From positions 1 through 37,027 of the IMG/VR virus record IMGVR_UViG_3300033513_000034: 37,027 bases of DNA, one strand, 5' to 3'. This document shows, in pieces, positions 2,809 through 32,335 of the stretch (position 1 is the first letter of the stretch; every line of letters starts with the position of its first letter). The notes beneath the pieces are model-generated. The model was given only the letters and a program-made list of their open reading frames with translations. It had not been told where the DNA came from and made no database searches. Source of the DNA: a virus (lineage: Duplodnaviria; Caudoviricetes). Position numbers and translations under genes: made by a program.

Positions 2809-3725
2809 GTTACATGCCTCCCTTGCAGGGTCTCGCTTTCCTGAGTTGGCCTCCAATTGAAACTCAGGTTCTCTGCGATGAAGTATTCACTTACGGTAGT
2901 GCCGGTGCCTGAGAGAACGTAGGACAGGTTCACCTTATCACCGATCTCGATTAGGTGGTGCAGGCGGGCATTGGCTGTGTATAGGGTGAGGCCTTCCAGG
3001 GCGCGCTGCTGGATTATCTGGGTGATAAAGTCCACGTCCGTATTGATGTTCGGCAGACGCAGGACAGCCGGGGTGAACCCCACATCACTGGCCCAACTGG
3101 TGCTCTGGACTAGCTTGGAGTAGGCGTAGTAGGCGGTGATATCACTCATGCCTGGAGTGAACCTGGTTTCCTTGCGGTGGTTGCGAACGCGGTACAGGTT
3201 CGAACTTCCCAGGTTGCCAAGGTAGGTATAAGCGACCGCTCCATTGTGACGCGGGAATAACAAGACTGGCCGCTCCTGGATGACAGACGAGATGGCATTA
3301 GCCCCGGTGCTTTCCATATCCACCCAGACCGCTTCCCGGTAAGTACCCAGCTCCCGGATGCGGATATTAGTAACGGTGATAGGGCTGGTGGCCTTGAGTT
3401 TTACGGGAGTGTTCACCAGGCACTTGGGTGGGGTGGGACAGCATGAGCCGATGCAGTGTATATCATTGTAGACCGAGATAAAGTCATCATGGATGAAGAC
3501 CCGCAGGTGAGTGATGGCAGCGGTCAGGGAGTATTTCTCCACCAACTTGGTGGCGATGATCGTTCCTCCACCGTCGAAAGCATCTGCACTGTAGAAACCC
3601 ACGTAGGTGGTGTTGATCGCAACCGTAGCTGACAGGTTGCCTATATTGATATACAGGGTCTTGCCAGTTATATCCGGCAGATCCATTGAAAGGTCCAGAC
3701 CACCAAAGACTGAGGTTGAGGTCAT
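2805..3725 (-). CDS. minor tail protein (hub-like)
   Basis: Position in tail module; C-terminal IEIGDKVNL...FIAENLSFNW resembles tail hub barrels. Confidence 0.5.
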   Translation of the reverse strand: MTSTSVFGGLDLSMDLPDITGKTLYINIGNLSATVAINTTYVGFYSADAFDGGGTIIATKLVEKYSLTAAITHLRVFIHDDFISVYNDIHCIGSCCPTPPKCLVNTPVKLKATSPITVTNIRIRELGTYREAVWVDMESTGANAISSVIQERPVLLFPRHNGAVAYTYLGNLGSSNLYRVRNHRKETRFTPGMSDITAYYAYSKLVQSTSWASDVGFTPAVLRLPNINTDVDFITQIIQQRALEGLTLYTANARLHHLIEIGDKVNLSYVLSGTGTTVSEYFIAENLSFNWRPTQESETLQGRHVT

Positions 3726-6700
3726 AAGTCGCTCCAGACAGTAGTCACATTGGTGTCAGTCACCGTGATATCGCCAGGGAATTCAGCCTTGGCGCCCAGC
3801 CCTTTGGATAGGGCATCAATGTAGTTGGTCAGGCCCATATCCTCTGTGTCCAGTGAAGAAGCATAGAAACTCTTCAGCCTCAGGGAAGCTGTGCCCTCGA
3901 AGATATAGGCCACTGTACCGGGCGGGAAGAAGGTGGATGACTGGCCGGTAGAAGCCCGGACGGTGGTCAGTGCTCCTGTCACCCAGGTATTCACGGACAT
4001 ATCATGACTGTCCGAAACGTCATCCCCTTCCAGGAACCAGCGCGAGCGGTTGAGGGTATATTCCACGGCTCCAGCATTAGTGATGAAAGGTTTCCAGTCT
4101 ACCTCATGAACCTTGTGAGCGTATCCATCGTCAAAGGCCATGACATATCCGGAATAATCATTGTAGTGGGTGGCGTTGTTCTGCCAGCGGAATAGGGATA
4201 CTTCAGCTGCCTGTTTGTAACCGTAGAAATGGTTGTCACTGCGATATGGGTTCCAGCTGGTAACGTTGCGGATCTGCCAGGGGCCTTCCGGATCCACGTA
4301 AGAGCACATGGTCGTGCCCTTGAGATCATAGGTGGTGTAACCGGTAGCACCTTCGTAGCTGAGGACACAACCATTGAGCAAAACCTGACCGGCGATGCTG
4401 AAACCCACACCCTGGGCTTCGTCAGCCGGTGTCTCCTTCCAGGCCAGCAGGGAGGAGTTGTCGGCGCTGAAGCCGACGATAGGGAAGTGCTTGGCGGTCA
4501 CTTCACCATAGATGCCGATCTTGGGAACAGCCACGGAGGATGACAGCATGCTGCCAAGTCCTGCGTCCCACAGGAAACTGCTGGAGGCGGCGCTCCAGGT
4601 GCTGGTGGTGGAGTTTAGCTCGTAGGTGGCAAAGTAGCCATCCCGGTGCTCGAACTTGATCTTGCTGAAGTTGGTGACTGTTACTTTGGGGGAGGTCTCG
4701 TAGACCAGGTTTCCGTGCTGGACAACCCGGATAAAGGATTGGATCAGTCCGGAACTAGGGGTGTGCTCGTAGGCTCCGAGGACGTAGTTTTCGGAATCTT
4801 CGGCCAGCCCGACAATCCCGTAAATGTAGTAGGACTCGGTTACAGTTGAACTTACCTCAAACCTGGCTATAGCCTGGAAGTTGACTGCGTTATAGGGGCG
4901 TTGGGAGAACAGGATGCTCGGGCCGCGCATGTTGGAGGGGTAGCAGAAATCCCAGGTGGTGGAATTGACTGTTTCCGGTATCCACATGGTGGTAGCCAAG
5001 GGCCGGACACCCACTCCGTTGTACCACATTGTCAAACGATCTGGCCGGCACCAGGTAGTAGTGTGATCATGGAAGACCACCCCGATGCTTTTGATCTTGT
5101 CACCGATCGGCAGGGAACCAGCTCCTATTTGAAAGTCCAAGGGATAGTAGCCAGTAACCGTGGTTCCCAGATAGTATTTTGGCGGGCGGCAATAGGTTGT
5201 TCCCATAAGATCGGTTGCCATGACAACTGTCTCATATTCGGTTGAGCCGCGAATGGTCTTGAAGTAAACACCCAGATCATCTACATTCAAGTTGGTTCCG
5301 GTCAGGGTGCGGGACCAGGCATAAACATTGACTATACAGTGTTGCGGGTGCATCTCCCATCCCAATGGATTTGTGTCGATGACCAGCGGATAGTCTTTCA
5401 GGCTCAGCTCGGCCTTCAGGTCTTCGATCTTGACACATACACTGTGGGTGGCAGTGGTGGCGATATAGTACATGCCCCCACCCTCAGCATAGTTTGAGTT
5501 GCTGAAGTCGATATCGATCTCAACCGGTTCCCCAGGCTGAGCGTTGAGGAAGTTGTCAACCAGGTTCAGGTCATCCCGCAGGCACTGTTTGGCAGTCAAC
5601 TCGACGTAGTTGGGATAAGAAGAACTATTCAGGATAGCCAGGCTGGAATTGGTCAGGGTCAGGTTGGGGGTGCGTATCCCATCTCCAAAGTCATAAGACA
5701 GATCTGTGATGATGAACTCACCGGCCTGGATCGGGTAATAGCCAACATCCAGCACTGGCCCAAAATCCACTGTGCAGACATTCCCAACAGCTAGCAGTGA
5801 GTTGCCGTAGAAGGCTTCATGGGGATCAGAGAGGGTCATCTGCCAAACATCATTACCGTTGGAAACTGCACCGGTCAGGGAAAGGATGCTTCCGATCGGG
5901 ATCTCCAGGCTGGAGCAGTGAGCTGGGTCGAGCCAGTAGGAGTAGGCTTCGGACTTATAGCGATCGCCGCTGGCAAAGTAGACCAGGTAGTTACTGGTAT
6001 CCAGGGCACAGCATACGTGAGCTCCAAGCTTGGAGACCGAACTCCAGCGGTTCATAGCAAAGTAGCGACCATCCGTGCTGGAGTTGATCATTGTCCATGG
6101 TGCTCTGGTGGTGTACTCGTCGGTAGTTGTCACGGCTGCGGTGCCATCTGCGCGGGCATAACTACCGACCAGAAAGATGGTGGAGTTGCTGATGAAGGAG
6201 TCCTGTACCTGGTAGGTTGACATATCCCTGGGGATGGCTACGAATACATCCGACCAGTAATCATGGGTCTTATCATAGATGCAACCCAACAGATCCCCAT
6301 CCAGGCGGCTGTAGTAAACATAGATCTTGGAACTCAGCTCGACCGCTGTAAAGTAGATCACATTCTCAGGGGCCGTATCAGCTGGCACTGTTGCAGTGTA
6401 AACGTTGTTGTGGCGGGACATAAAACGGTAGGGCATGGTGTGAGTCTGCCAGGTGCCGCTCTTATAATAGACCGTGGGCCGCGTACCGCCGTTGTCTATC
6501 CCAAGGTAAACTACCTGGGTCGCATCGGTGGGAGAAACCACTGAAAGGGAACCAGGTTCAACCTCCGCTGCGGTTACATTCTCAACAGTGAGGTTGGTAG
6601 CTCCGGGCAGGCAGTAACCGCGTTGGATGATCATGTTGGGTGAGTCAATAAAGAAGACGTAGATGTTTCCCCCACTGTAGCAAATGGCAGGCTTGGCCCA

Positions 6701-6988
6701 TTTGTAAGTGTACTCAGTTACCGTGGCTCCGGAGGTGAAGTTGCCAGCAAACACCCCATTGACGTACTTTTCCAGTACGAGGGTTGTGGGGTTCACCACA
6801 ACCGATATGAGCTGAGTGCCGGTCCAGACTGCATCCTGAACGATCCGATCCACGTTGTCGTAGGCTGTATCTGTCCCTGACCAGGTGCTGAACCAGATGC
6901 GGGTCTTGAAGATTTCCGCTGAACACTGACTGCGGGAACCTTCGCCTTGCTGAGCAGTTTCAATTACGGCATCGTAGTCTCTCGACAT
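3722..6988 (-). CDS. large minor tail protein (1088 aa)
   Basis: Two genes downstream of the tape measure; beta-rich, S/T/Y-rich; internal GEFIITDLSYD hub-like segment. Confidence 0.6.
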   Translation of the reverse strand: MSRDYDAVIETAQQGEGSRSQCSAEIFKTRIWFSTWSGTDTAYDNVDRIVQDAVWTGTQLISVVVNPTTLVLEKYVNGVFAGNFTSGATVTEYTYKWAKPAICYSGGNIYVFFIDSPNMIIQRGYCLPGATNLTVENVTAAEVEPGSLSVVSPTDATQVVYLGIDNGGTRPTVYYKSGTWQTHTMPYRFMSRHNNVYTATVPADTAPENVIYFTAVELSSKIYVYYSRLDGDLLGCIYDKTHDYWSDVFVAIPRDMSTYQVQDSFISNSTIFLVGSYARADGTAAVTTTDEYTTRAPWTMINSSTDGRYFAMNRWSSVSKLGAHVCCALDTSNYLVYFASGDRYKSEAYSYWLDPAHCSSLEIPIGSILSLTGAVSNGNDVWQMTLSDPHEAFYGNSLLAVGNVCTVDFGPVLDVGYYPIQAGEFIITDLSYDFGDGIRTPNLTLTNSSLAILNSSSYPNYVELTAKQCLRDDLNLVDNFLNAQPGEPVEIDIDFSNSNYAEGGGMYYIATTATHSVCVKIEDLKAELSLKDYPLVIDTNPLGWEMHPQHCIVNVYAWSRTLTGTNLNVDDLGVYFKTIRGSTEYETVVMATDLMGTTYCRPPKYYLGTTVTGYYPLDFQIGAGSLPIGDKIKSIGVVFHDHTTTWCRPDRLTMWYNGVGVRPLATTMWIPETVNSTTWDFCYPSNMRGPSILFSQRPYNAVNFQAIARFEVSSTVTESYYIYGIVGLAEDSENYVLGAYEHTPSSGLIQSFIRVVQHGNLVYETSPKVTVTNFSKIKFEHRDGYFATYELNSTTSTWSAASSSFLWDAGLGSMLSSSVAVPKIGIYGEVTAKHFPIVGFSADNSSLLAWKETPADEAQGVGFSIAGQVLLNGCVLSYEGATGYTTYDLKGTTMCSYVDPEGPWQIRNVTSWNPYRSDNHFYGYKQAAEVSLFRWQNNATHYNDYSGYVMAFDDGYAHKVHEVDWKPFITNAGAVEYTLNRSRWFLEGDDVSDSHDMSVNTWVTGALTTVRASTGQSSTFFPPGTVAYIFEGTASLRLKSFYASSLDTEDMGLTNYIDALSKGLGAKAEFPGDITVTDTNVTTVWSDL
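6022..6035. repeat. palindrome 14-bp core CTCCAAGCTTGGAG (inside tail gene)
   Basis: Direct reading. Confidence 0.8.
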
Positions 6989-6997
6989 ATCCTTCTC

Positions 6998-7420
6998 CTA
7001 GGTAGTGGTGGTGCCCATGGCAATCTGAACCTCGACCATGTACCAGGTGTTGTTGCCATCAATGATGGTACAGATAGGTTGCAAGGCTACCTGGGCATTT
7101 ATAACCTTGCAGTTGGTATGCCAGATACCCCAGTGATCAGTCATGCTGAAGAAGGGTGTGGGATTCGCATTGGGGTTATTGCGCTTCAGGATGGTCTTTA
7201 GGCGATCGTACCAGCCATAAGAAGTATCCGAGACAGTGTACGGGACACGCAGGACATAATCAAAGGACTCGTACACCCCACCGTAAGTGATATCGTAAGA
7301 CCCACTGGCGGTCTTCTCAACGTTGCGGGTGGTCTCGATGACTGGGACCATCTTGACTGCCTTGAACTTGCAGGTATAGCCACCTGTGCTTTCTACAACG
7401 GTGATGTATGAATTAGCCAT
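6998..7420 (-). CDS. putative distal tail protein (140 aa)
   Basis: Immediately downstream of the tape measure, with the size and beta character expected of Dit-like proteins. Confidence 0.5.
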   Translation of the reverse strand: MANSYITVVESTGGYTCKFKAVKMVPVIETTRNVEKTASGSYDITYGGVYESFDYVLRVPYTVSDTSYGWYDRLKTILKRNNPNANPTPFFSMTDHWGIWHTNCKVINAQVALQPICTIIDGNNTWYMVEVQIAMGTTTT

Positions 7421-10400
7421 TTAGAACATCCTTATTTCCTTGCTGGTGGTGTCGATAACGTACTTGCCAAGGAGCTCGTTGCCGATGTAGATTTTTATAA
7501 CGCTGTTTCCTCCAAGCTTGGAGGCGGTCTGTGCATACCTCGGGATGACTTCTCCAGCCCAGGGATCAGACAGCCCACGTGTGATGGCTTGCAGGGTGTT
7601 ACCTGAGATAATGGAAGTGGGGGTGATGGGGATTGCCACCTCGGGTCCATCCTCGCCAACGATGCGCGGGCTGGTAATTACCCCGCCAATGGCACTGCCA
7701 CCCTGGATTGGCACCCAGCGTCCCTTTTCCGCATCCCACCTCCAGCCTGCCCCTGGATTGTTACTGCGGTCTGTCAAAGGATCTGAAGCATCAGGTAACT
7801 CTCCACCCGTGATATCGTAAAGCTCACGCACGAAGTTGGTGATGATATCCAACACACTGATCATGTTGTTGCCCAACAACTTGGCGTTGCCCGCGGCGAT
7901 CGATTCCTGGTCGGCCATTTCGAGCAGTTTCTGGTTGGCCTCATAGGTCTTGGTGGCGAAGTAAGCCTGAGCGCCGGCCGCATCCTTTGAGAGTTGGAGT
8001 TGTTTCATCTGGTACTCGTACTGGAGCTTGCGCTCGGTTTCCTGAAGCTCAAAGCTCTTTTTGTAGAACTCTTCCTGCTTGGTCATGTACTGGCTTTGCA
8101 GGTCGTGCAGGGTCTTGTACTCGGCCTTGGCTTTATCGAACTGCTTCTGCTGGATATCCCACAACTCCTGCTGGCGGGCGCGCTGGATGTCGATCTGTCC
8201 TGTTTCCAGGTTGTAGGACATCACATCCCGCCCGCGCTGGCGCTCGGCCAGGCGGCGCTCGCGGCCGCTCATGAAGCGCACATTCTCCTCATAGTCCTCG
8301 GTGCTCCACTGGAATTGCAGTCCGCGCATCTGGGACTGGTAGCCCCAATCCTGCTGCGTCCACTGGCGGGTGCGGTTCATCTGCTGTTGCTGTTGCCCGA
8401 ACTGCCACATCTGGTACTGGTTCTGGATATCGAAAGTCTGTCTCTGATAGCCGAAACCGTACATCTGTTGCTCGTATCCGAGCTGAGCCTGTTGGGTGTT
8501 CAGGGCGAAGAACTGCGGCATGTACTCTTCCTGCAGGGCAATACCGCGCAGGGTTGCACCGATGCTTGCCATCTGGCCCTGATAGGAAAACTTGTTAGCG
8601 GCCAGCTGGGCGCCCATCGAACCACCCACTACCTGCCCGTTGCTCATGGTGTAACCTGTAACAGCCGCGTTCAGGATCGGGTTATTGGAGAGAGCTGAGC
8701 CAGCCCATCCACCACCAGGACCGACCGCGCCGGCACCCCAGACGTTGGCGGTCACCTGTTGGGCAGGGACATTACCCCACTGATAGCTGGTTGTGCCCCA
8801 TGGTAGACCGGTTTGCTGTCCTTGCAAGTTGATGTCACCAAACATCACTGGAGCAGTGGCTGGCATCCCGGTGCCAGGCCCGCCTGTGCTGGGGATCTGT
8901 CCCTGCATGGCGAGGTTAGTCCAGGCGATTGGATTACCGCTGATCAGCTGGCCGTAAAGTTGCTGGTACTGCGGCCCCATCAGATTGTAGCGGGTCACAG
9001 CACGCGCGGCGTCCATGCTACCCGAGATAGCTAGAGCTTGGTTTCCATATTCAAGAGCTTGTCTCCACTGTGGGATCTGCTCTCTACGAATACCAGGAAT
9101 TCCCCTTTCGGGAGCACCCAGGATCTGTTCGGGGATGTACCCAAGCTGGCTAGCTGGTCCAACCAGGGCCAGGCGGGCTTCGGCTGTAGTCAACTCTTTA
9201 GGGGTAGCTTTGGCAGCACCCATGCCCACACCCCACTGCAAGCCGCCAGCTTCTACACTCGTGCGCCAGCTCTCCAGCTGTTGCCGGGCTGACACAGCCT
9301 GCGGGTTCGTGAAGTCCAGGTTCAGGTTATAGTTGATCCCCATCCCCTGCCACTTCTGCCCGATGGCAGACTCGGTGGCGATCATTTGGGCGATCACCGG
9401 TGTTTGGCGATAGATATCCGCAATATCCTCATAGGGTTTAAATGGAGCACCCTCCTGCCAATACTTTCCCCTCAAAGCCAGGCCCATTTCAGGCGATAGT
9501 TGAGCCATAAACTGAGCACCGGTCTGGATCTTGGAGAGCCGGACAATATCTTCCCCAACGTATTTGGTGAGGCCTTGCTCCATGGCGCCCTGCAGTTGAG
9601 GTGTCAGGATGGCCTGCCCAGCGGCCGCCAGGGCACCAGTGATGTTCTCCATATTGACACCGGCTGTTCGCATGTTGGCCGAGAACTGGATCTGCTCTTG
9701 AGTAGGGACAACCCCAGCCTTGGCATACATGGAAGATACCTGTTGAGCGATATCAGGACCATACTGTTTGTAGAAGCCGGAGACTGACTCTCCGGTAATG
9801 CCAGCCGTGATGAGATCGGGACGGTTCCTTAGACTGGTAGTGAGCGGGACACCGGAAGTCCTTTGTTGGGTAATGGCATTTTGCAAGAGCGCCATATCAA
9901 CCTTTTCCTGAGTAGTGCCGAACAGGTTGACTTTCATAGTGTTCCAGGCGAACTTGCTATCACCATAAACATCGGTGGCGGCGCCTGTCAGGGCTGTGCC
10001 AGGGTCCATCCTGGTTCCAGCCACCATAAGACCGGTCGCCCCAATGACACCTGCAGCGGCACCTATCCCGATCCCAACCGGTCCAGTCATGGCAATTGCG
10101 GCGGGTGTGCCAGCCGTAAGCATTGAACCAAGCCACAGGGACATCATCGATCCAGCAACTGCGCCTGCACCGACACCGCCTATATCTCGGGCCACGGAAG
10201 GAGCATTGGCACCAAGGCGCTGGATAGCCGCGCCAGCACCACCACCGTAAGCGATCTGAGCCTGCCGGACTACATTGGCAGTGGACTCATAGGGCATGGC
10301 CCCAGGAACGTAGCCCAACAGTCCTTGAGCTGATTGGGATAGAAACTGGTCGGCTTGCTGTTGGCCGTATTCCATAAAGCCCAGCGGCATCTGCGCCAGG

Positions 10401-13400
10401 CGGGACATATACATCAGACCCCAGCCACCTAGTACGTTGCGGGCCATGTGTCCCAGGGTAGCACCTGAGATACCGCCGCCCCGACCTTCCATCTCAAAAG
10501 CCTTGAGCCTACCTTCGGCTTTGGAGACTGCTTCCCCGGCTTCACCGTACTTGTAAAGCAAGTCTGTCATGGTCGCCCGAGGGACCTCTTCGATACCACC
10601 CCATTGGGCGATAGTTTCATCCAGGATTGCTTTAGCCGCTCTTTGCCTTGGCATCAGGTTCTTGGCGATATCCTGCTTAGTGAGCTCGACGTTATACTCA
10701 CGCTCAGCCTTGGCACGTTCTCCCACAGACTTGCTGGAGTCATTCATGGTCTGGGCAAGCTCTTTGATCCTGGCATTGAACTTGTCGATTGTTTCAACCG
10801 ACTCTTTGACCTCCTTCATACTCATCGTGCCTTCTTCGGCAGCTTTGGAAGGTCTCTCCAGACCCAGGGCAGCTTTGCCCTCCTGCAAAAGACGACCGGC
10901 CATGGCGGCCTGTCCCAGAGGTGTTCCCCCGGTGGTGATACCGGTTACGGTTGGGAGCAGGGTGGCATCCTCAGTCTTGTAGCCAGCATTGAGCATGCCC
11001 TCCATGGTATAGGCATCCCCCATCAGGTTGGAGAAACCGCGGATCATTTGGGGATTCCGGACGCTGAACATACGCAGGGCGGCTTGTCCCTGAAGTGTTC
11101 TAGCTCCCTGCATGATGGCTTGCTGCATATTTACTTGACCCTCACCAGTACCGATGCTGATGTTGGCACCGGTAGCCGTGAAGGCAGCTTGCAACCTGGC
11201 CTGGAAAGTCTCTATCTTGGGTTCATTGATCCCGGCTTGAGTGAGGACACTGAATTCCTGAAGTGCCCCCTTTACCTGGTCGGGTGAACCACCACCCCAA
11301 ATAGCTCGCATGGTGGCACCCTCAAAACCACTCTTGATACCGCTTGCGATCATGCCAGATAAGCCTTTCATCCATTCCGGCATGCCCTCATCGTCGCCCG
11401 CGGCGGCTACTGTGCCTTCCCCACCAATGTCCCCACCCTTGCCACCACCTGTGGTTTGACCGGCCTTGCCACCCCGGATGTAAGTTCCCGTTTTGGGAGC
11501 GCGGTGGGCGGCCTTGGGATGTAAGATCCCGCCTACCAGATCCTTGATATCCTCGCCCTTGGCACCGGCATAGGTCTGAAGAGTAGGTAGGTTAGTTTTG
11601 ATGGCGGCTGGCTTCTCCATTTCGGATACCTGCCCCAAAGCACCAACCAGCATGGTTGACATCGTTTCCAGATCGACTGGAGCTGTGGCTTCTCGGCCAC
11701 CAGGTCCACCTACAATACCGAAGGCTTCGGGAGATTGACCGGTGGCTTCGAACCATCCAGCTGCTACCTTGCGAGCTTCGACTTCCCCCTCGTCCCTGAG
11801 GCCACGAAACTGCTTACTTTCTCTGATCCAGGGTTTCATGGTTTGATAGAATAACTCACCCTGTTCTTGAGTAGTCTTACCCATTTCAAGTGCCCGTTCT
11901 CGGGCGCCGTATAGGATACCAAGGTAAGCGGCTGGTTCCAGACCAATGCCGGGGGTCTGGGCTAACTGTGCCACATCTGCGTTTACATCGGTGGTGTACT
12001 TGGCCTCGATGGCAGTGAGTTTGCCACCCACCACATTCATGATATCCGGCTTGCCGCTGATCATTCTTCTAGGACTGGCTCTGGCTACGTCTTCAGCCGT
12101 AACTGCACCTGGCGCGATGGCCTGCAGACCGCGCAAAAAATAGGATTCAGGGATACGCACAGTTCCCTGTGGTCCACCAGGTCCAATCTGTGAAGCCACC
12201 AATGGTTCGCCAGCATAACGGGCAGAGAGAGTTTCCTCAAACTTCCCGCCAGCTTCCGTGGCAGCAGTTTTAGCAGAGCTGAAGATCTTCTGGTATTGCT
12301 CTGTTGGCATACCGATAATACGGGCTAGAACCTCCATGGGGGCACGAGCATTGATCTGGCTCTGAATAGTTTGGGAATAAGGGGAGGGGACACCCAGAAT
12401 ACCCTGGAACATAGAGGCTGAAATGCTGTACTCGCTTACCGGGTACTGTTGCCCACCAGCCACGGCTGTGCCTTCAGCAGTAGCTTCACCGGGAAATATC
12501 TTCTGTAACTGCCGGATAGCGGCCGGGATCTGGCCTTCACGACCGGCATATTTCTCGGCTACAGCCTGGTTGAGCATCGCCATCTCTTCTACAGTCGGGG
12601 TGGCGCTGCGCTGTTTCATACTTTGATAAAGCACACGTGCTGCTCCTACCGGACCACCTTGGGCCAGCTCACCAAAGGTCATCCCAAAGGGACCGGGAAT
12701 GGTCTCGGAGAATGGCCCCAGGTTGACCTCAGACCCACCTACCATACGAGCTTTGCCAAGTCCTTCCCCTCCGATCAGGGCATTGGTGACAGCCGCAGTC
12801 AGACCGGCCAGCCCCAAGGGACTTGACAGGGGATCAGCGCCTTTGGGGAACACATCCCGCAAAGCTACACCTACACCCTGTCCGGTTTTTTGGCGAGCGA
12901 CAATAGCTGCTTCCAGCTGGGTCATCTGCTCAGGGGTGGAGGTAGCTGGCGCGGCTAGGAAGGCTTTGGTGTGCGGGTCGAGATCGGCTTCGTTTAGGAC
13001 ACCGCCGATGAAGTTGCGGTACTCGTCCCAATAGTCATTGGCAACTGCTTCTCCCTGAGAGTAACGCTTCTGGCTATTCCATAAAGGAGTCCAGCGTTTG
13101 TCCTTGGCACTGCCTTTTGCCAGGAAGATCAGGTTGTTCGTGCCCTCTTCTATACCGAAAGTGGCTGTGGATAGGAAGGTCTCAATGCTGGATTTGCCGC
13201 CGCGTTTCTGGATCAGGCCAGTCATGACATCCAGATAAGGTTGGTATTCCTGTGCTAGCCCGCGTGTGCCAGCCACCGGGTTCTCCTGAGTGCCCAGAAC
13301 GGCCCCAGAAGCCCGTAGCATGCGCATGGCATTGAACATGGTCCCTTTCCCAAAGGAGGCCTGCATGGTCAGTGCAGACGTTTCCAGGGTCTCGGCGCGG

Positions 13401-16400
13401 GACTTGGCGCGGCCTTTGCTTGGATCAAAGGGGTCTTGACCACCCTCTTCCACCAGACTTTGATACATATTGCTGATGATGTTGTACTGCTCATGCTTCT
13501 CGCCAAATACAGACATCAATGAACGACTGATAGCAGTACCGGTATCGCCCATCTGCGGGATGAGTTTCTGAACGTGTTCCGGGATATGTAGACCCTTTTG
13601 TGGATCGGCAGTCACAATCCCCATGGCGATCATCTGGTCCAGGTCCCAATCACCTACCTGGGTAGCCGAGCGTAAACCAATGGCAAGAGGAGTACCAGTT
13701 GCCTCAGGATTACCAGGAATGATCTGGCCGGCATTGGTGACACGGGTTGCTTCAGCGTACTGTGCCCCGTATTTTCTGGCCGCCATCTTGGGAGTGATGA
13801 TACCCACGCCAGTGATACCGGCTTCACCTTCATAATAAGGTGAACGCATGAAAGCACCAGGCAGGTAGCCCCACTGTTCGATCTGTGCTTCGGCCTTGCC
13901 CCTCCAAGCTTGGAGTTCTTCACCCTGTAAACCAGTGGATTGTCCAAGCGCCCCCAGGATCTTCTGATATTGATCCTCCTGCATCAGCATCATACCGGGT
14001 GGGATGCCGGCCACGTTCTTGTAACGCCCCGACTCAGCGGCACGTGAGTACCAGCTGGAGACTTCTCCCAGGACGGTATGGGAGCTAGCAAGTTGACCGG
14101 CCAGGAGATCGTAACGGGCTGTTTGGCGGGATGGTCCAGCGCCACCAGCAAAAGAAGCCACGGCAGGTAGATAGGTGTGACCGATACCGGAAATGGCTTG
14201 AAAGGCTACATCGTCCTCTTTGGTTCCAGTGCGGCCCCACTTGATGATCTTCTCCATCGGTTCTGGTCCGAGCATGTAGCGTCCACCACGTTCCAGGATA
14301 TCAGCCCCACCAGCCGCCTCACGCGCCATTTCCCAACCACCAGCTCCCAGGGCAGCCGCGCGCTGGAGCTTGGTAGCCATTTCCTCATTCACGGTGCCGA
14401 TCTTCAGTCCTAGAGCCGCGGCGGCTTCTCCGATGGGGTAGGCTTTGCCATAGGTCTCCATCGAGCGGGTATAGCGTTCAGCGGTCAGCATGGCCTGCAT
14501 GGCAGGGATGTGGCCGGGGGTGTAGGATGGTAATCCTTCAAGCAGTCCAGGCACAGCAGTCTGAGCCAGCTCTAAGGCACTTGGGCCTAAACGGGCTTGC
14601 TTGGCCGGATATTCAGCAGCGCGTTGAGCAGCCTGAGGCGCGATGGTCCAGTTGCCAAACTCGCTGTAAACACCGGAAGTGGGGTCGTAGCCGATGTAGT
14701 CGTACCAGTTCTTACCTTTAGGTAAGTTGCCCTGCAGTGCACCACGCCGGATCTCGAATTCCTCCTGGGTCATGCGGGTAACTGGCATCCAGGTATTGGG
14801 CATACTGGCTACACCAAACTGGCGGTAGGTATCCTGTGGGTTCATCTGGTTCAGGGCACCGATGGTAAGCTCCATGGCTTTGTAGTAACCTGACTTGGGA
14901 TCCTCGCCAAAGAATGAGCCCACGATATTTGGGTTGAGTGCTACAGCCTCCGGGTTTTTAGCCCCTTGCCGGTTCTGGATGACATACTGCTCAGCCTGCG
15001 TGAAAGCACTGGCGGCTTGAGCATTTCCGGCTTGCTGGTAGAAACTGCCCACGGCCTGGAAGAGATTGGCTTGCTGGGTGGAAGTCAGCGAGCCCACCAC
15101 ACCGAAACCGAACTGCTGTAAGGGAACCTTGGTGATGTTGCCAGCCCCGCCCAGGGACACACGTGTGCCACCTCCACCCTCGCCGCGAATGACCGTTTCG
15201 AAGTCCATGGCTGAACTGTTGGCGAACTGTGCCACGAGGGTTTCACCACCCTTCAACCCAAGCGACTTAGGCTCAGCACCCACCGTGCTATAAGCGCCCA
15301 GGAACAGGTTTACATCGGCAGTCTGCCGGCCGAGCAGGTTGACACCCTGAAGATCCAGCGAGCCAAAGGTATTGGCGGCTGTGCGGAAACCAGGCCCACC
15401 AGTCAGGGAACCCGAACCCTCCCTGACATTGAAGAACTTGGGGGCGGTCATGGAGATCGAGGCGCCCTGCTCTAGATAGGCATCACGTTCAGGTGTGAAG
15501 GTCAAGGGGAACTGCTTACCGCCCTGGAGTGTGACCATGCCGATGGTGGCTGAGACACCGGCTGGATAAGCCCGGTTGCCAATATCGCCAGTCCTCTGCC
15601 AGGCATCGCCCTCGCCCCGTTGGAAGAGACCCGACTCAACCTTGGCATAAGCCCAATCGGCTACGTTGATCTGGGGTGCATCCAGCGTGACCTGCTGGCG
15701 AATGGTGTTGGCGATTACTTGCCCTTCCTGCCCGGCCTGGCTGACGTTCTGCTGGAAAACCCACTGAGAGCCGGATTTGCTTTCACCGCCGATCGCCATT
15801 CCCTGCCGTACCAGTGCTTCGATGGGAGTACCTTCGAAGGATAGGACGTTCAGGGTACGGAAACCCTGCTGGCCTGCTTCAGTGATTGGGTTATAAGCGG
15901 CCGGCTTGATTTCGCCGCCGCGCCCGAGCATAATCGGGGTGGTCATACGGGCAGTCTCTTCGGTCACGCGAGTACGCTTGGGATCGAAGAAACCGAGTGG
16001 GATCAGGGCTTCCCCTTGCTTGGGTTCAGGGACATAACCGCTGGTGACGCTCAGGATCAGTTGTTCCTGCGGCGAAAGTGGGGTAGTGCCCTGCCGCCGT
16101 TGCATTTCCAGGTCATTACCCAGACCGTACAGAAAACTCAGTGCGTCCGGTTTCTGGACACCCTTGCCGTAACGGATCGGGATGGCTTGACCCAGGAAGG
16201 CCGTAAAACCAGCCTCTTCCTGCACGTTGCTCATGAAACGCTTGCCAACCTGGCTACCTACCTCGGCTACCCGTAGGGTGCTCCAGATGTCATTAGGGGT
16301 AGTAGCGCCGCGGGACTTGAAAGGTGAAGTTCCCAGGGCCGTGGACACCCGATCCATAAATGAGGTCTCGGCTGTTCGAACCTGAACATCCTGTTCGCCG

Positions 16401-16660
16401 GTAAAAGCGATGGTGGGACCGTGGTGCCAAACATAATCGCCCTGTTTCGTCCCCTCCAGGAGCTCCTGTCCCATCTCAGTGGTTTGCCCGGCAGCCAGGT
16501 TCAAGACAAGCGCACGTGTGCCTTTGCGGAAGGTGACTTCCTGGAATCCACCCTCTTCGCGGCCGAATTCAAGCTCGATCCTGGCCTTCCTGCCGGTGAA
16601 CATTTTGGTGAGTGTTTCCCGCAGGTTGACGCCGGACGAATATGGCAGTCTGCTAGGCAT
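7421..16660 (-). CDS. 3079-aa tape measure polyprotein with N-terminal RNA polymerase-like region and PD-(D/E)xK nuclease-like domain
   Basis: Canonical position after tail tube and frameshifted chaperones. C-terminal AIGGVITSPRIVGEDGPEVAIP, hydrophobic Gly/Ala helices and Q-rich aromatic-periodic coiled coil indicate a tape measure. SGR(879), RSP(939) and DWDLD(1004-1008) are RNAP-like; PD(1538-39)...EAK(1552-54) is nuclease-like. Confidence 0.85.
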   Translation of the reverse strand: MPSRLPYSSGVNLRETLTKMFTGRKARIELEFGREEGGFQEVTFRKGTRALVLNLAAGQTTEMGQELLEGTKQGDYVWHHGPTIAFTGEQDVQVRTAETSFMDRVSTALGTSPFKSRGATTPNDIWSTLRVAEVGSQVGKRFMSNVQEEAGFTAFLGQAIPIRYGKGVQKPDALSFLYGLGNDLEMQRRQGTTPLSPQEQLILSVTSGYVPEPKQGEALIPLGFFDPKRTRVTEETARMTTPIMLGRGGEIKPAAYNPITEAGQQGFRTLNVLSFEGTPIEALVRQGMAIGGESKSGSQWVFQQNVSQAGQEGQVIANTIRQQVTLDAPQINVADWAYAKVESGLFQRGEGDAWQRTGDIGNRAYPAGVSATIGMVTLQGGKQFPLTFTPERDAYLEQGASISMTAPKFFNVREGSGSLTGGPGFRTAANTFGSLDLQGVNLLGRQTADVNLFLGAYSTVGAEPKSLGLKGGETLVAQFANSSAMDFETVIRGEGGGGTRVSLGGAGNITKVPLQQFGFGVVGSLTSTQQANLFQAVGSFYQQAGNAQAASAFTQAEQYVIQNRQGAKNPEAVALNPNIVGSFFGEDPKSGYYKAMELTIGALNQMNPQDTYRQFGVASMPNTWMPVTRMTQEEFEIRRGALQGNLPKGKNWYDYIGYDPTSGVYSEFGNWTIAPQAAQRAAEYPAKQARLGPSALELAQTAVPGLLEGLPSYTPGHIPAMQAMLTAERYTRSMETYGKAYPIGEAAAALGLKIGTVNEEMATKLQRAAALGAGGWEMAREAAGGADILERGGRYMLGPEPMEKIIKWGRTGTKEDDVAFQAISGIGHTYLPAVASFAGGAGPSRQTARYDLLAGQLASSHTVLGEVSSWYSRAAESGRYKNVAGIPPGMMLMQEDQYQKILGALGQSTGLQGEELQAWRGKAEAQIEQWGYLPGAFMRSPYYEGEAGITGVGIITPKMAARKYGAQYAEATRVTNAGQIIPGNPEATGTPLAIGLRSATQVGDWDLDQMIAMGIVTADPQKGLHIPEHVQKLIPQMGDTGTAISRSLMSVFGEKHEQYNIISNMYQSLVEEGGQDPFDPSKGRAKSRAETLETSALTMQASFGKGTMFNAMRMLRASGAVLGTQENPVAGTRGLAQEYQPYLDVMTGLIQKRGGKSSIETFLSTATFGIEEGTNNLIFLAKGSAKDKRWTPLWNSQKRYSQGEAVANDYWDEYRNFIGGVLNEADLDPHTKAFLAAPATSTPEQMTQLEAAIVARQKTGQGVGVALRDVFPKGADPLSSPLGLAGLTAAVTNALIGGEGLGKARMVGGSEVNLGPFSETIPGPFGMTFGELAQGGPVGAARVLYQSMKQRSATPTVEEMAMLNQAVAEKYAGREGQIPAAIRQLQKIFPGEATAEGTAVAGGQQYPVSEYSISASMFQGILGVPSPYSQTIQSQINARAPMEVLARIIGMPTEQYQKIFSSAKTAATEAGGKFEETLSARYAGEPLVASQIGPGGPQGTVRIPESYFLRGLQAIAPGAVTAEDVARASPRRMISGKPDIMNVVGGKLTAIEAKYTTDVNADVAQLAQTPGIGLEPAAYLGILYGARERALEMGKTTQEQGELFYQTMKPWIRESKQFRGLRDEGEVEARKVAAGWFEATGQSPEAFGIVGGPGGREATAPVDLETMSTMLVGALGQVSEMEKPAAIKTNLPTLQTYAGAKGEDIKDLVGGILHPKAAHRAPKTGTYIRGGKAGQTTGGGKGGDIGGEGTVAAAGDDEGMPEWMKGLSGMIASGIKSGFEGATMRAIWGGGSPDQVKGALQEFSVLTQAGINEPKIETFQARLQAAFTATGANISIGTGEGQVNMQQAIMQGARTLQGQAALRMFSVRNPQMIRGFSNLMGDAYTMEGMLNAGYKTEDATLLPTVTGITTGGTPLGQAAMAGRLLQEGKAALGLERPSKAAEEGTMSMKEVKESVETIDKFNARIKELAQTMNDSSKSVGERAKAEREYNVELTKQDIAKNLMPRQRAAKAILDETIAQWGGIEEVPRATMTDLLYKYGEAGEAVSKAEGRLKAFEMEGRGGGISGATLGHMARNVLGGWGLMYMSRLAQMPLGFMEYGQQQADQFLSQSAQGLLGYVPGAMPYESTANVVRQAQIAYGGGAGAAIQRLGANAPSVARDIGGVGAGAVAGSMMSLWLGSMLTAGTPAAIAMTGPVGIGIGAAAGVIGATGLMVAGTRMDPGTALTGAATDVYGDSKFAWNTMKVNLFGTTQEKVDMALLQNAITQQRTSGVPLTTSLRNRPDLITAGITGESVSGFYKQYGPDIAQQVSSMYAKAGVVPTQEQIQFSANMRTAGVNMENITGALAAAGQAILTPQLQGAMEQGLTKYVGEDIVRLSKIQTGAQFMAQLSPEMGLALRGKYWQEGAPFKPYEDIADIYRQTPVIAQMIATESAIGQKWQGMGINYNLNLDFTNPQAVSARQQLESWRTSVEAGGLQWGVGMGAAKATPKELTTAEARLALVGPASQLGYIPEQILGAPERGIPGIRREQIPQWRQALEYGNQALAISGSMDAARAVTRYNLMGPQYQQLYGQLISGNPIAWTNLAMQGQIPSTGGPGTGMPATAPVMFGDINLQGQQTGLPWGTTSYQWGNVPAQQVTANVWGAGAVGPGGGWAGSALSNNPILNAAVTGYTMSNGQVVGGSMGAQLAANKFSYQGQMASIGATLRGIALQEEYMPQFFALNTQQAQLGYEQQMYGFGYQRQTFDIQNQYQMWQFGQQQQQMNRTRQWTQQDWGYQSQMRGLQFQWSTEDYEENVRFMSGRERRLAERQRGRDVMSYNLETGQIDIQRARQQELWDIQQKQFDKAKAEYKTLHDLQSQYMTKQEEFYKKSFELQETERKLQYEYQMKQLQLSKDAAGAQAYFATKTYEANQKLLEMADQESIAAGNAKLLGNNMISVLDIITNFVRELYDITGGELPDASDPLTDRSNNPGAGWRWDAEKGRWVPIQGGSAIGGVITSPRIVGEDGPEVAIPITPTSIISGNTLQAITRGLSDPWAGEVIPRYAQTASKLGGNSVIKIYIGNELLGKYVIDTTSKEIRMF
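7509..7524. repeat. 16-bp palindrome CCTCCAAGCTTGGAGG (3' end of tape measure gene)
   Basis: Exact copy. Confidence 0.95.
13901..13916. repeat. palindrome variant CCTCCAAGCTTGGAGt (inside RNAP-like region)
   Basis: 15/16 match. Confidence 0.85.
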
Positions 16661-16943
16661 CGGATTTCTCCTTGATGGGTGGTCGCATGCTTATCTCGAC
16701 TTCGCGGATAACTGCGACTTCCATAAGCCAGATAAAGGGTTGATCTAAAAGACCACCACTGCACAGGTTTGTGTTGAGAGCCTGACACTGCTGCCAGTAA
16801 ATCAATGCTTCGGGTTTATCGATCTGTTTTGGAGTTGATGTCTGGCCGATCTCGGCCATCATCGCAATCTCATTCAGGGTTCCATAGTAGTTGTAGAGTG
16901 CTTCTCGGAGTTCGTCTAGTTTCTCCCCCACTAGCCTTCCCCC
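16653..16943 (-). CDS. C-terminal (-1 frame) extension of the tail assembly chaperone (lambda gpT-like)
   Basis: Open -1 frame after the slippery site, ending in an overlap with the tape measure start; GGLLDQPFIW motif. Confidence 0.7.
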   Translation of the reverse strand, partial: GGRLVGEKLDELREALYNYYGTLNEIAMMAEIGQTSTPKQIDKPEALIYWQQCQALNTNLCSGGLLDQPFIWLMEVAVIREVEISMRPPIKEKSDA

Positions 16944-17377
16944 GATAAGCCCCTCCACACAGGATTGACCTCCAAAACTTTAGCATGGATTTCGTCAGCA
17001 ATATCGCCTGGTAACGCTCCCCAGGCTTTGTCAAACTCACTGCGTTTCATCGCCAGGACCGGTTCATTGTCCTCTTGCTTGGATGGGAAGAGCACACTTC
17101 CATCCACATTTAGCAAGTTGCACTCACATAACGTGAGCCATACTTCCAGCTGCATCAGGGCTTGCAACCCGATATTGGTCACTAGAGCGACCTTATCAGG
17201 TTCGGCAGAATCCCACTCCCGACGCATGGTGTCGAAGTATGCCTGGCGCTCGATGTCCTGTTTCTTGCGCGCCTGCCGAACGGTGACAGTGGTTGGATCA
17301 CCATCGTTGCTGTACTTTTTGTCAGTTGCTTCAAGTGTGAATGTCTTTATCAATGGTGCTATGAGTTTTACGGGCAT
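16931..17377 (-). CDS. tail assembly chaperone (lambda gpG-like)
   Basis: Between tail tube and tape measure, 148 aa, slippery heptamer just before the stop. Confidence 0.75.
   Translation of the reverse strand: MPVKLIAPLIKTFTLEATDKKYSNDGDPTTVTVRQARKKQDIERQAYFDTMRREWDSAEPDKVALVTNIGLQALMQLEVWLTLCECNLLNVDGSVLFPSKQEDNEPVLAMKRSEFDKAWGALPGDIADEIHAKVLEVNPVWRGLSGEG
16937..16943 (-). promoter_or_regulatory. programmed -1 ribosomal frameshift site G GGG GAA
   Basis: Minus strand reads TCG GGG GAA GGC TAG; a -1 shift enters the ORF that runs to 16653. Confidence 0.75.
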
Positions 17378-17435: not shown

Positions 17436-18512
17436 TTAGGTGGGCCACACGTAGCTGGTGTTGGTGTTGCCCAGGTTGACGGTATAGGCTGCACCGCTGG
17501 TAGGAGCGATGACCGTCCCGGTCAGTCTCATCATGACCGAACCGTTGCCTGCCAGCCGGATGCCACCATTCATCTGGTACATAACGTTATCCGAGCGAAC
17601 CCGAAGCTGCCAGGGCGTGGTCAGGATCGCCAGGCGGCTGGAAACGCACAGCACATCCAGGTTCGCCACGTAGGGCGCCATGGTCCAGGACATACCGCTG
17701 GTGGTGCCGGTCATCAGTTTCTTGTAGAGCTGAGGATCTTCCCACTTGATGATCAGATCCACTGCCAGCGAGCGGGCGATGATGGTGATGTCCTGAAGGT
17801 ACGGATCGCCGTAAACCCGTTCCTGGCGCATATCCAGTGGAGCATTGGCGAAGGTCAACGTGCCGGCTACGATCGGGAGATCAGATCCTGAGAAGGATGG
17901 GATCTGCATGTAACCAGTGGTGACGCACCCAATTGGGATCGACTGGTAATCTTCCCAGTTGGTATTGGTGTAGGTCCAGGCCGTGGGATCAGCATAGCTT
18001 GGCATGCAGCCCAGAACATCCACGCGGGAGGTGATCAGGCCATCGTTGGGCAGACCCAGGGTGAAACTGATGATCTTGGTGTCCCGGAAAACCTCACCCA
18101 TGGCCGAGGCCGTATTCGTGCCAGGGGTGTACTTGCGCCAGGTCATCCAGGGCAGGTAGGTTGAGTCGGAAGCAAAGGTGAAACCGTGATTGAAGAAACC
18201 AGTCACGGTTGTTCCGAGAACGTCCTGGTTGGCTGTGGTAGCCACGGCGCCTACCGCGCCGTACAGCAGCCATCCCAGGGTGTTTTGCAAACGAGGCAGA
18301 AGGGTCGCACCACCCGCAGCCACCACACCAGCCCGGTAAGGGATGGTCGGAACGGGCTGGCCGCCGACTTCTGGCGGGCCGAGCCGGTCATCCGAGATGG
18401 TGCTCAGATCGATGTCGGAAGCGCGGTGCTTGTAGAAAGTGGTGGAAGCGGCTGTTCCCTTGGCAGGTTGCGGCCCAAAAGAGAGAACACCATTCATTGC
18501 GGTGATAGCCAT
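17436..18512 (-). CDS. major tail (tube) protein
   Basis: 358 aa, Thr/Gly-rich beta protein upstream of the chaperones; ends VNLGNTNTSY; AAGGAG RBS. Confidence 0.75.
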   Translation of the reverse strand: MAITAMNGVLSFGPQPAKGTAASTTFYKHRASDIDLSTISDDRLGPPEVGGQPVPTIPYRAGVVAAGGATLLPRLQNTLGWLLYGAVGAVATTANQDVLGTTVTGFFNHGFTFASDSTYLPWMTWRKYTPGTNTASAMGEVFRDTKIISFTLGLPNDGLITSRVDVLGCMPSYADPTAWTYTNTNWEDYQSIPIGCVTTGYMQIPSFSGSDLPIVAGTLTFANAPLDMRQERVYGDPYLQDITIIARSLAVDLIIKWEDPQLYKKLMTGTTSGMSWTMAPYVANLDVLCVSSRLAILTTPWQLRVRSDNVMYQMNGGIRLAGNGSVMMRLTGTVIAPTSGAAYTVNLGNTNTSYVWPT

Positions 18513-23032: not shown

Positions 23033-24511
23033 TTAGCCCTTTTTAGTGTTTACGGTGATGCCAGGTGAGATCTGAAACAACCCAATCTCGTCCAGGCAGT
23101 CGTAAAACCATTTTGAGTGGTCAAAGTGCATCGGGTACAGGTCTTGCTGCCCGAAGTTGACCGTGAAATACAGATACCCGCCGCGTTTCAAAACGCGGCC
23201 TATAGCTTTCAGCATTTCCCGCAGGGGTTCAGCCGGGATATGCTCGAAGACCTCGAAGGATACAACAGCTTCGTAACTATTGTCCGGCACCTTGGTTTCC
23301 CAGCTAGGATCGCCGTACAGGATCGAGCCCAGCCGCTCGTAGCCGGTCAGCAGGTTACGGGTGGTCTTTTCCCGCAGTTTGGAGAAGTCCTGCAGCAGTT
23401 TGTTGGTTTCGATGGACAGGACGTTGTTGCGCTGGAACATGAGCTGGATCGAGACCGTCCCGATGCCGGAACCGATCTCCAGCACGTTCTGATCCCAGAT
23501 GGGGGTGATCTGCTCCTGCAGGCTCTTGAAGGTGTTGGTGTAGTTCCAGTGCAGCAGTTCCATGATGTACTTCTTGCCCGTTTCGGGGTTGGAGTACCAC
23601 TCGTGGACCTCACGCGGCTTGGCGGTGCGGTTGCCGAAGCACTCGCGCCAGTAATCGCCGGCGTCGTGTGGTGTGCCTTTATCGATCTCGGTTTTGGCCT
23701 GCTCCAGTGAGATTTCGTAGAAGTCCTTGTACCACGTGGCTGCGGCTTCCGGGGTGTACTGTGACATAGCCATGCCGCGGTGACGATATCCAGCCTCGAA
23801 TTGGCCGACCGAGATAGGAACATCCAAATAATGGCCGGAAATGAGTGAAAGATCGCAAACGACCGGATAACCGGTCTCCTTGGCTTCAGCGCAGAACACC
23901 AGGTCTTCCGAGTTGCCGCCAGGCCGGTATTCGAAGATGGGTTGCGGCATTTTCTCCAAAACGGAGCGGTGGATCATCATACAACCGGTGGCGACCGCAT
24001 CGCAGTACAAAAGCGGATCGGTGGAGCACTCCTTGACCCAGATCGGGCCATCGGTGGGAGGAATGTGGTTCTGGATGATGAAATCGTGCACCTCGTCGTA
24101 CATGGGCGCCCACAGTTTCCCCATACGTCCATAACCGTCCTTACGATCGTTACAGCGCCGGAAACAGAAGGGTTCGTGGCTGGATCCTCGGTGGAAGTAC
24201 AGAGCGCCGATGATCGGGAGTTTTCGGCCCACCAGGATCTCGCCGCACATGACCGGGTGCTCCATATCCGAGTCAAGCATCAGCAGCCAGTCGGGTTTTT
24301 GGGGCAGGCTGAGAAAAACCTGGATAATGCTGTCCCGGTTATGGTCCACGCGGTGTCCGGAGGCGGGAATCAGGCCACCTTCAGCCATCAGGCCGCGTTG
24401 GGCCAGGTGTGCGATAATAACATCGCGATTATTGACGAAAGCGGGCATCATGGTGCGTTCGACCGGTATTCCGATCGCAATCAGGTTGTTTTTTATCTCT
24501 AAGGGTTCCAT
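23033..24511 (-). CDS. GT-A (GT2-like) glycosyltransferase fused to class I SAM-dependent methyltransferase
   Basis: N-half WLLMLDSD (DxD), ATGCMMIHRSV, SEDLVFC; C-half VLEIGSGIG, FEVFEHI, RVLKRGG. Confidence 0.85.
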   Translation of the reverse strand: MEPLEIKNNLIAIGIPVERTMMPAFVNNRDVIIAHLAQRGLMAEGGLIPASGHRVDHNRDSIIQVFLSLPQKPDWLLMLDSDMEHPVMCGEILVGRKLPIIGALYFHRGSSHEPFCFRRCNDRKDGYGRMGKLWAPMYDEVHDFIIQNHIPPTDGPIWVKECSTDPLLYCDAVATGCMMIHRSVLEKMPQPIFEYRPGGNSEDLVFCAEAKETGYPVVCDLSLISGHYLDVPISVGQFEAGYRHRGMAMSQYTPEAAATWYKDFYEISLEQAKTEIDKGTPHDAGDYWRECFGNRTAKPREVHEWYSNPETGKKYIMELLHWNYTNTFKSLQEQITPIWDQNVLEIGSGIGTVSIQLMFQRNNVLSIETNKLLQDFSKLREKTTRNLLTGYERLGSILYGDPSWETKVPDNSYEAVVSFEVFEHIPAEPLREMLKAIGRVLKRGGYLYFTVNFGQQDLYPMHFDHSKWFYDCLDEIGLFQISPGITVNTKKG

Positions 24512-31028: not shown

Positions 31029-31315
31029 CCCTTCACTGAGCATAAGTAGCGGCATATACGTACACAGGAGTGCCTATATGCTTCAAGTCTAGGAGCAAAA
31101 CCTACATCATGTAAGCCTGTAACTCATGGTAGGTGCAGTATCTAGTCTTGTGCTCAGTGAAGGGGGTCTAGTATACCAATGTCACGTAGTGATCTATAAC
31201 CCAAACGCGTAGACGCGGGCAATAGATGATCGCGTAGTGACTACATCAGCTCACGTACAGAGTGAGTGTACAGCACACACTGTAGGCATATCTATCAAGC
31301 CCTTGGTCCTACAGC
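31029..31315 (+). ncRNA. candidate structured RNA (block B)
   Basis: 18-bp stem 31029-31046/31147-31164 enclosing two hairpins, followed by three more stem-loops. Confidence 0.5.
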
Positions 31316-31340
31316 AAGGCATGCAAGAAGGAGTATCTAT

Positions 31341-32264
31341 ATGACTAGCAATATCGTTGCAGTAGTCGGCTCTAATAGCAAGGGCACGACTTTCACCCCT
31401 GAGAATGGGGATAAGTATTTGATGGCTGATAGAACGATGAAGCATGACTTCAAGGAGGGCGAGAAGGTCGTTATTCTCGACACCAAGAAGCTGGAAAGTG
31501 GCCTGGTCTTTGTGACCAAGGCTGTGCGTTTCATCGAGAAACAGACCATCAAACAGGCACCCAAGGTCATCAAGATCGAGCCTCCGAAACCGGTTATCAA
31601 AGTGAACGCTGTCGAGGAAGCGTTCGCCCAGACCATGGAATCGGTAAATAAGGCCATTGCGGCCCTGAAGTTGAGCCACAATAAGCTCAGCCAGGCCGTG
31701 GCCGAAAAGCGCCAGCAGGAACAGATCAACCAGCAGGTGCTGGATCGGACTGCGACTGTGTTCGGGCTGGAGAGTCCGTTCTATCAGCAGATGCAGTTCA
31801 CGACTGCAAAGGCTCTGGAGAATATCGCGCTCGAGGCTGCCCAGGCCAATTATCTGACCGCGGTCGATCTGACCTACCAAATCGCCCAGCAATTGGGCGA
31901 GAAACCGTTCCTGGGGATCTCTGAGAAGCTGGACGAGCTGTTGAACGCGTCCAAGCCTGCGCCAGAGGTCATCACGACTGAAGTGGCGGCTGTTGAGACC
32001 GAAAAGCCGGTGGGCAAGAAGAAGCTGGCTGCTCAGGCTAAGAAGGCCGAGCAAGAGGCCGCTCATCAGAGACACGAGGCCAAGAAACTGAAGGCCAAGC
32101 AAGACTATGAGGAGAAACTGCGCCTCGAGAAAGAGGAGCAGGACCGGAAAGATGCGGCAGAAGCCAAGCACCAGGAAGCTCTCGCCAAGCGGCGGGAGGC
32201 TCGCAAGGCCAAGAAGGTTATGGCCGTCCCTGTGGTATCCACTGTTGAAGCCATTCAGCAGTAA
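31341..32264 (+). CDS. hypothetical protein (307 aa) with charged coiled-coil C-terminus
   Basis: GAAGGAG before the ATG at 31341; K/E/A-rich tail. Confidence 0.8.
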   Translation: MTSNIVAVVGSNSKGTTFTPENGDKYLMADRTMKHDFKEGEKVVILDTKKLESGLVFVTKAVRFIEKQTIKQAPKVIKIEPPKPVIKVNAVEEAFAQTMESVNKAIAALKLSHNKLSQAVAEKRQQEQINQQVLDRTATVFGLESPFYQQMQFTTAKALENIALEAAQANYLTAVDLTYQIAQQLGEKPFLGISEKLDELLNASKPAPEVITTEVAAVETEKPVGKKKLAAQAKKAEQEAAHQRHEAKKLKAKQDYEEKLRLEKEEQDRKDAAEAKHQEALAKRREARKAKKVMAVPVVSTVEAIQQ

Positions 32265-32335
32265 TACACTATTTTATCCATCCCTGGCCTTTCTGACCGA
32301 CCAGGGTATATCTATTTCTATGAAGGAGTGTGTGT

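Follow-up and report, generated by a model that had tools for sequence, protein, structure and literature searches.

The stretch of DNA analysed here (the window) is a linear 37-kb virus record of the Caudoviricetes (IMGVR_UViG_3300033513_000034; 37,027 nucleotides), which is about 43% complete. Its minus strand carries a giant open reading frame (ORF), P0001 (7421..16660), that encodes 3,079 amino acids (aa) without a cysteine. By the ORF call and the gene order of its relatives, P0001 stands in the tape-measure position, between the tail tube and chaperone genes on one side and the distal tail genes on the other. All window coordinates below refer to the minus strand unless stated otherwise. 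The front half of P0001 likely holds a two-barrel RNA polymerase, predicted to carry out template-dependent synthesis; it is followed by a block of the PD-(D/E)xK type and then by the tape measure proper. This three-part layout had been proposed in an earlier note on the window, and it is upheld by the motifs and by gene order.

PD-(D/E)xK block: The very diverged RecB-type nuclease-like domain spans approximately aa 1405-1700 (11561..12448), as delimited by its landmarks, by alignment with the relative P0002, and by a match to TIGR00372. It comprises a Ser-rich candidate for motif I placed by peptide position (aa 1411-1418; 12407..12430; register unconfirmed), a GxxFE helix motif seen in the alignment of relatives (aa 1471-1475; 12236..12250), the catalytic core GxPD...ExK with D1539, E1552, and K1554 (11999..12055), over which the TIGR00372 match lies, and ExxxY (aa 1575-1579; 11924..11938), for which QxxxY is found in all three other proteins that carry the block, P0002 included. 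The four peptides quoted in the earlier note are present where it placed them (aa 1411-1418, 1469-1478, 1533-1555, and 1574-1583; nucleotides 12430 to 11912), and its three catalytic residues are correctly numbered. The earlier note had singled out these residues without knowledge of any relative, and their conservation had been set beforehand as the test of the proposal. In P0002, which is the sole full-length close relative (3,265 aa, ~24% identical), all three are identical within a gap-free block, and the D-to-E distance is 13 in both proteins. The background conservation between P0001 and P0002 is 0.29 for D, 0.25 for E, and 0.21 for K, which gives the triple a chance expectation of ~1.5%. 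The G, the P, and the later Y of the core are also conserved in P0002.

The other two carriers of the block, L003 and L006, are more divergent. The spacing from GxxFE to the Asp is 68 in P0001, 67 in P0002, 67 in L003, and 42 in L006, and the catalytic triple reads D/E/K in P0001 and P0002, D/D/K in L006, and D/S/K in L003. The domains of P0001 and P0002 align with a z of 10 versus shuffles, whereas the other carrier pairs reach at most 2.4, and the L006 block stays under 1 against the other three. From the RecB-type signature that had been claimed, the D, the ExK, and the GxPD block are retained, and the Ser motif I at aa 1411-1418 is unconfirmed: in two alignments it was not matched to the candidate motif I of P0002, and the registers disagree. 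It stays possible because the distance from the candidate to GxxFE is similar in P0001 and P0002. In L003 (L003:8060-8210, plus strand) the nuclease-like core is PD...SxK, with Ser for the third acid and QxxxY kept, which suggests an inactive or rearranged active site.

Among 18,950 NCBIfam models, only the Cas4 model TIGR00372 matched the window domain, with an expectation value (E) of 0.25 for 301 aa and 0.042 for a trimmed 85 aa (11-14 bits versus a cut-off of 65). The L006 block has two look-alikes, PDDEXK_3 and PDDEXK_1, at 0.90-0.91, with family shares of 14% and 20%, and it matches phrog_1706 (E 0.012). Pfam and PHROGs returned nothing relevant for the window domain, with no match to PF12705. 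Alignment by hhalign to eight phage PF12705 proteins gave no window match under E 0.28, in a comparison of low power that recovered 5/28 known pairs at E under 0.01; the best match of P0002 in the same underpowered comparison placed the Asp, the (D/E)xK, and the QxxxY in register (E 0.064). These library signals are weak, and all point one way, to the PD-(D/E)xK superfamily. Word-index protein searches returned the query alone. A four-domain alignment found no stand-alone relative among 7,992 candidates of 121-545 aa, longer proteins not being searched in this way; domain-seeded scans of viral contigs and a GTDB genome scan gave no matches. Among cultured phages, tblastn gave no match to the polymerase-nuclease region, to the L006 domain, or to the terminase. 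The residues aa ~1405-1700 very probably adopt a PD-(D/E)xK fold, and the domain of the window protein is predicted, with somewhat better than even odds, to be catalytically active.

The resemblance to RecB-family proteins (PF12705 PDDEXK_1; RecB, AddB, lambda exonuclease, RecE, and Exo5-type) lies in the landmark order of G-helix, Asp, (D/E)xK, and QxxxY. Unlike these proteins, which are free or fused to a helicase, the window domain is part of a virion protein; it also has no PF12705 match and has E for Q. The label 'Cas4-like' given earlier holds only at the motif level, as Cas4 (TIGR00372) and phage Cas4-like proteins share the weak match over the Asp...ExK core. Membership in Cas4 itself was rejected: there are no cysteines in 9/9 proteins, and hence the four iron-sulphur cysteines are lacking. 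In addition, no cas gene was matched among the 30 window ORFs scanned (a CRISPR array was not searched for).

Polymerase-like region: The two-barrel RNA-polymerase-like region covers approximately aa 680-1300 (12761..14623; borders inferred), with homology to four proteins and a weak structural hint to RNA polymerase beta'. Its RxP motif (aa 939-941; 13838..13846) and its DxDxD metal-binding motif (aa 1004-1008; 13637..13651) are invariant in 9/9 aligned proteins, which are 19-28% identical to the window protein in range-cut rows. An AlphaFold model of aa 400-1400 from an eight-sequence alignment has low confidence (predicted local distance difference test, pLDDT, 46). The relevant structural matches to this model are RNA polymerase beta' chains, none of them significant. 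The match to 8w9z_C spans RxP to DxDxD (Z 5.0, root-mean-square deviation 4.5, rank 28) and its 123 aligned residues make it the longest among 50 rows; the AR9 polymerase 7s00_d is second in Foldseek (E 0.72).

Linker and tape measure: A Gly/Pro-rich linker (~aa 1720-1760; 11381..11503) follows the nuclease-like domain. The most Gly/Pro-rich 30-mer of the protein lies after the domain in 4/4 carriers, which places the domain on the polymerase side of a hinge. The tape part has a conserved family motif (aa 2080), found with the relatives, and a hydrophobic, membrane-like stretch at aa 2187-2207 (both within 10031..10453), whose hydropathy peak of 1.74 is modest. The C-terminal tape region (7871..8563) is rich in Gln, Glu, Lys, and Arg, as seen at aa 2700-2900, and is by composition likely a coiled coil; at 48-55% it is the best-conserved part of P0001 versus P0002. 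The whole of P0001 gave no Pfam or PHROG match, tape-measure profiles included, and no PDB sequence match.

Relatives: A phmmer search with aa 600-1730 against 1.84 billion representatives found four other proteins (E 1e-13 to 1e-40), of which P0002 is full length and one other has a 2,389-aa cluster mate, P0006. The tape-region motif of the relatives yielded five more distinct loci (L001, L002, L003, L006, and L007); L004 is the window, and L005, L008, L009, and L010 duplicate other loci. The presence of the block was counted over eight informative proteins, the window included. P0003 (which stops 337 aa past DxDxD), L007 (front half missing), and P0004, P0007, and P0008 (pieces of the P0006 cluster) were left out; P0005 was kept, being partial but extending 695 aa beyond DxDxD, with its Gly-rich linker coming early. 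A landmark pattern places the core between polymerase and tape in 4/8 (P0001, P0002, L003, and L006). This pattern was devised after viewing the sequences and fires in 1-4% of shuffles, and its result is counted as support and no more. Carriers have 957-1,241 aa between DxDxD and the tape motif, versus 730-880 aa in the three non-carriers where both landmarks can be placed. In a tree of the polymerase core, which has three long branches of unsure placement, the carriers do not form one clade: their distribution takes three changes, a union of the four appears in 0% of 200 bootstrap trees, and the approximately unbiased test (p-AU) gives 0.002. Several losses or exchange would both fit this patchy presence. 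The four-fold-site content of guanine and cytosine (GC) is 0.44 in the window domain (11561-12448) versus 0.58 elsewhere in the gene (z -3.6). A recent insertion was rejected on this measure, as the dip is broader than the domain and is not seen in L003 or L006.

Two further features of the relatives were noted. The partial protein of L007 (L007:2-3820, plus strand) contains a pretoxin-type HINT domain at frame aa 1042-1166 (PF07591, E 9e-9, above the cut-off), close to the C-terminus with about 100 residues of tape after it, and it is possibly self-splicing or self-cleaving. By NCBI labels, P0003 and P0004/P0006/P0008 come from Bathyarchaeota and Thorarchaeota bins on contigs of 3-18 kb; mis-binned phage contigs are likely, and the labels serve as a host lead only.

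The closest known system is gp96 of the Thermus phage P23-45, described in PMC10770324 as a tape-measure protein with a virion two-barrel RNA polymerase fused to it; P74-26, G20c, and TSP4 are further examples. According to that paper, virions contain gp96 at full size, and its pre-early transcription is proposed to take place at a tape-measure pore. P0001 resembles gp96 as a giant cysteine-free ORF after tail tube and chaperone genes, with DxDxD in the N-terminal third and a membrane-like stretch and tape region behind. In contrast, there is no detectable sequence similarity between them (no blastp match at E 0.05, and a profile comparison at E 1), and gp96, at 5,002 aa, has a metallopeptidase domain. 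Behind the gp96 polymerase the landmark pattern has no match, and its single match in gp96, at aa 4678, looks unrelated. P0001 and its relatives thus extend polymerase-tape fusions to a lineage without detectable similarity to the Thermus phages.

The triple fusion was put forward in the earlier note as one not known to be characterised. Its polymerase-tape part is of a published kind, as in gp96, and the version with a nuclease was not found in the literature searched. The words 'nuclease', 'Cas4', and 'RecB' have no occurrences in the main text of the P23-45 paper (PMC10770324), and 'nuclease' does not appear in the available passages of PMC13277306. No polymerase-nuclease-tape fusion is described in the titles and abstract openings searched, most subscription papers being outside that scope. 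Large multi-domain polyvalent proteins that deliver a polymerase and enzyme cargo with the DNA are described in parts of PMC5512222; those parts discuss polymerases of N4/T7 type, and 'tape', 'RecB', and 'Cas4' have no occurrences in its main text. The polymerase-tape fusion is therefore known, and an optional RecB-type module on one, with fold and activity predicted, appears to be new.

The favoured explanation is that P0001 carries an optional RecB-type nuclease that is ejected with the tape-fused polymerase and probably acts by trimming the leading end of the genome as it enters; we put its probability at roughly 0.4. Domains of the RecB/lambda-exo/RecE/Exo5 type mostly need a free DNA end to work from, and genome-end processing is favoured because the incoming genome has one while the host chromosome has none. 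The giant protein, with the polymerase in its front half and the nuclease next, would be ejected with the DNA. By analogy with gp96, it would be packaged in the tail as one polypeptide, its C-terminal half would form a pore or channel, and its polymerase-nuclease half would be suspended on the cytoplasmic side, where pre-early transcription would take place at the pore. The nuclease would then trim the leading end of the incoming phage genome, and limited resection could leave a single-stranded overhang that helps the polymerase to load or prepares circularisation via terminal redundancy. The P23-45 work left open by what means tape-fused polymerases load on the linear genome as it enters and how this genome persists until it is circularised, and a nuclease in the same ejected chain offers a concrete, testable step.

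Several results weigh against this explanation. By the landmark pattern the block is absent from L001, L002, P0005, and P0006, that is, from half of the informative proteins, and L001 lies in a genome that is complete at 84.6 kb, has terminal repeats, and shows no PF12705 match, so that the polymerase-tape fusion of this phage does without the domain. No library match to the giant protein or the domain reaches a curated cut-off, and a search of the Atlas produced nothing usable for the window domain. The AlphaFold model of the domain, from two sequences, has a pLDDT of 40 and, like that of the polymerase region (46), is of low confidence; its sheet core is not formed and no nuclease is among the structural matches of either model, although models of such low confidence exclude nothing. 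The Ser at the third acid in L003 and the E for Q in the window indicate that catalysis may be relaxed. Moreover, a nuclease beside the phage's own genome would need a brake, and none is evident. The presence count also weakens the earlier suggestion that the nuclease is needed to make the polymerase template, and an obligatory role for the polymerase was rejected on the same count. Going by the proteins compared, the domain is accessory, because relatives do without it.

A different use of a real nuclease, which we regard as doubtful, is that of anti-host or counter-defence cargo, which would act apart from the polymerase and cut host DNA, rival elements, or nucleic acids linked to defence. 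Its patchy presence over the polymerase tree, with three changes and a single carrier clade rejected, would suit such a role, and the L006 block, which cannot be aligned with the other three, suggests exchange. The lower GC of the window domain could be read in the same way, but the dip exceeds the domain and is missing in L003 and L006. Injected phage proteins with exchangeable enzyme cargo are a theme described in parts of PMC5512222. On the other hand, the position of the block is constant, hard against the polymerase in 4/4 carriers, and family scans detected no protease or release domain in the window protein.

An unlikely alternative is a PD-(D/E)xK fold tied to transcription, which would hold on to DNA where the polymerase has no clamp, or cut or trim nascent RNA for backtrack rescue or for 3' or 5' end processing. 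PD-(D/E)xK RNases fused to viral polymerases do exist, as in the cap-snatching endonucleases, and the fixed adjacency to the polymerase would be in keeping with such a task. Against it, QxxxY with an upstream G-containing helix motif points to the RecB/DNA-exonuclease branch. In its favour, gp96 is clamp-less (PMC10770324) and the active site has drifted in 2/4 carriers; nevertheless, D, an acid, and K are all retained in 3/4 carriers across great divergence, and half of the family transcribes without the domain. Finally, it is quite improbable that the region is a Gly-rich linker, poorly folded and without a nuclease fold, in which the motifs arose by chance: the window domain has no significant family or structure match and the landmark pattern is post hoc, but the pre-named residues are conserved gap-free in P0002, four proteins share five landmarks in a single order, the four shorter relatives have none, and three independent libraries lean to the same superfamily.

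If the explanation by genome-end trimming is taken further, it can be tentatively proposed that tape-fused polymerases are widely paired with an exchangeable, ejected RecB-type nuclease acting on the entering genome end or on the first transcripts, as an undescribed 'entry module'. If true, the ruler protein itself would carry DNA-end processing and pre-early transcription before any phage gene expression. The relatives of P0001 provide natural pairs with and without the domain, and the sites for point mutants are defined (D1539, E1552, and K1554).

Neighbouring genes: The minus strand of the window has the order terminase, portal, glycosyltransferase-methyltransferase fusion, scaffold, major head protein, and tail tube, followed by two overlapping small ORFs, the 3,079-aa ORF, a 140-aa gene, and a 1,088-aa gene. 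The tail tube protein (17436..18512) was identified by PF18906 (E 2e-5) and is 44-57% identical in four loci. The two overlapping ORFs (16653..17377) are likely a tail-assembly-chaperone pair, a label given by position from the ORF layout and the gene order of relatives. The pair resembles a tail-chaperone frameshift pair and is conserved in L001, L002, L003, and L006; a simple pattern search of 16901-17000 found no classic slippery heptamer. The 140-aa and 1,088-aa genes (3722..7420) had no family match in library scans and are likely distal-tail and hub proteins, again labelled by position in the gene order. The gene order on both flanks of the giant gene is the same in 4/4 loci that show both (L001, L002, L003, and L006), and in a fifth related locus, where the downstream side alone is visible, the order is also the same. 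The glycosyltransferase-methyltransferase fusion (492 aa; 23033-24511) lies directly after the portal gene and could modify the capsid or the DNA, which would bear on how the phage spares its own DNA. On the plus strand, two ORFs of 332 and 364 aa without family matches (31266-33424) open an opposite-strand block of small genes; they are preceded by a stretch of ~1.4 kb without a convincing long ORF and are candidate pre-early genes for the virion polymerase.
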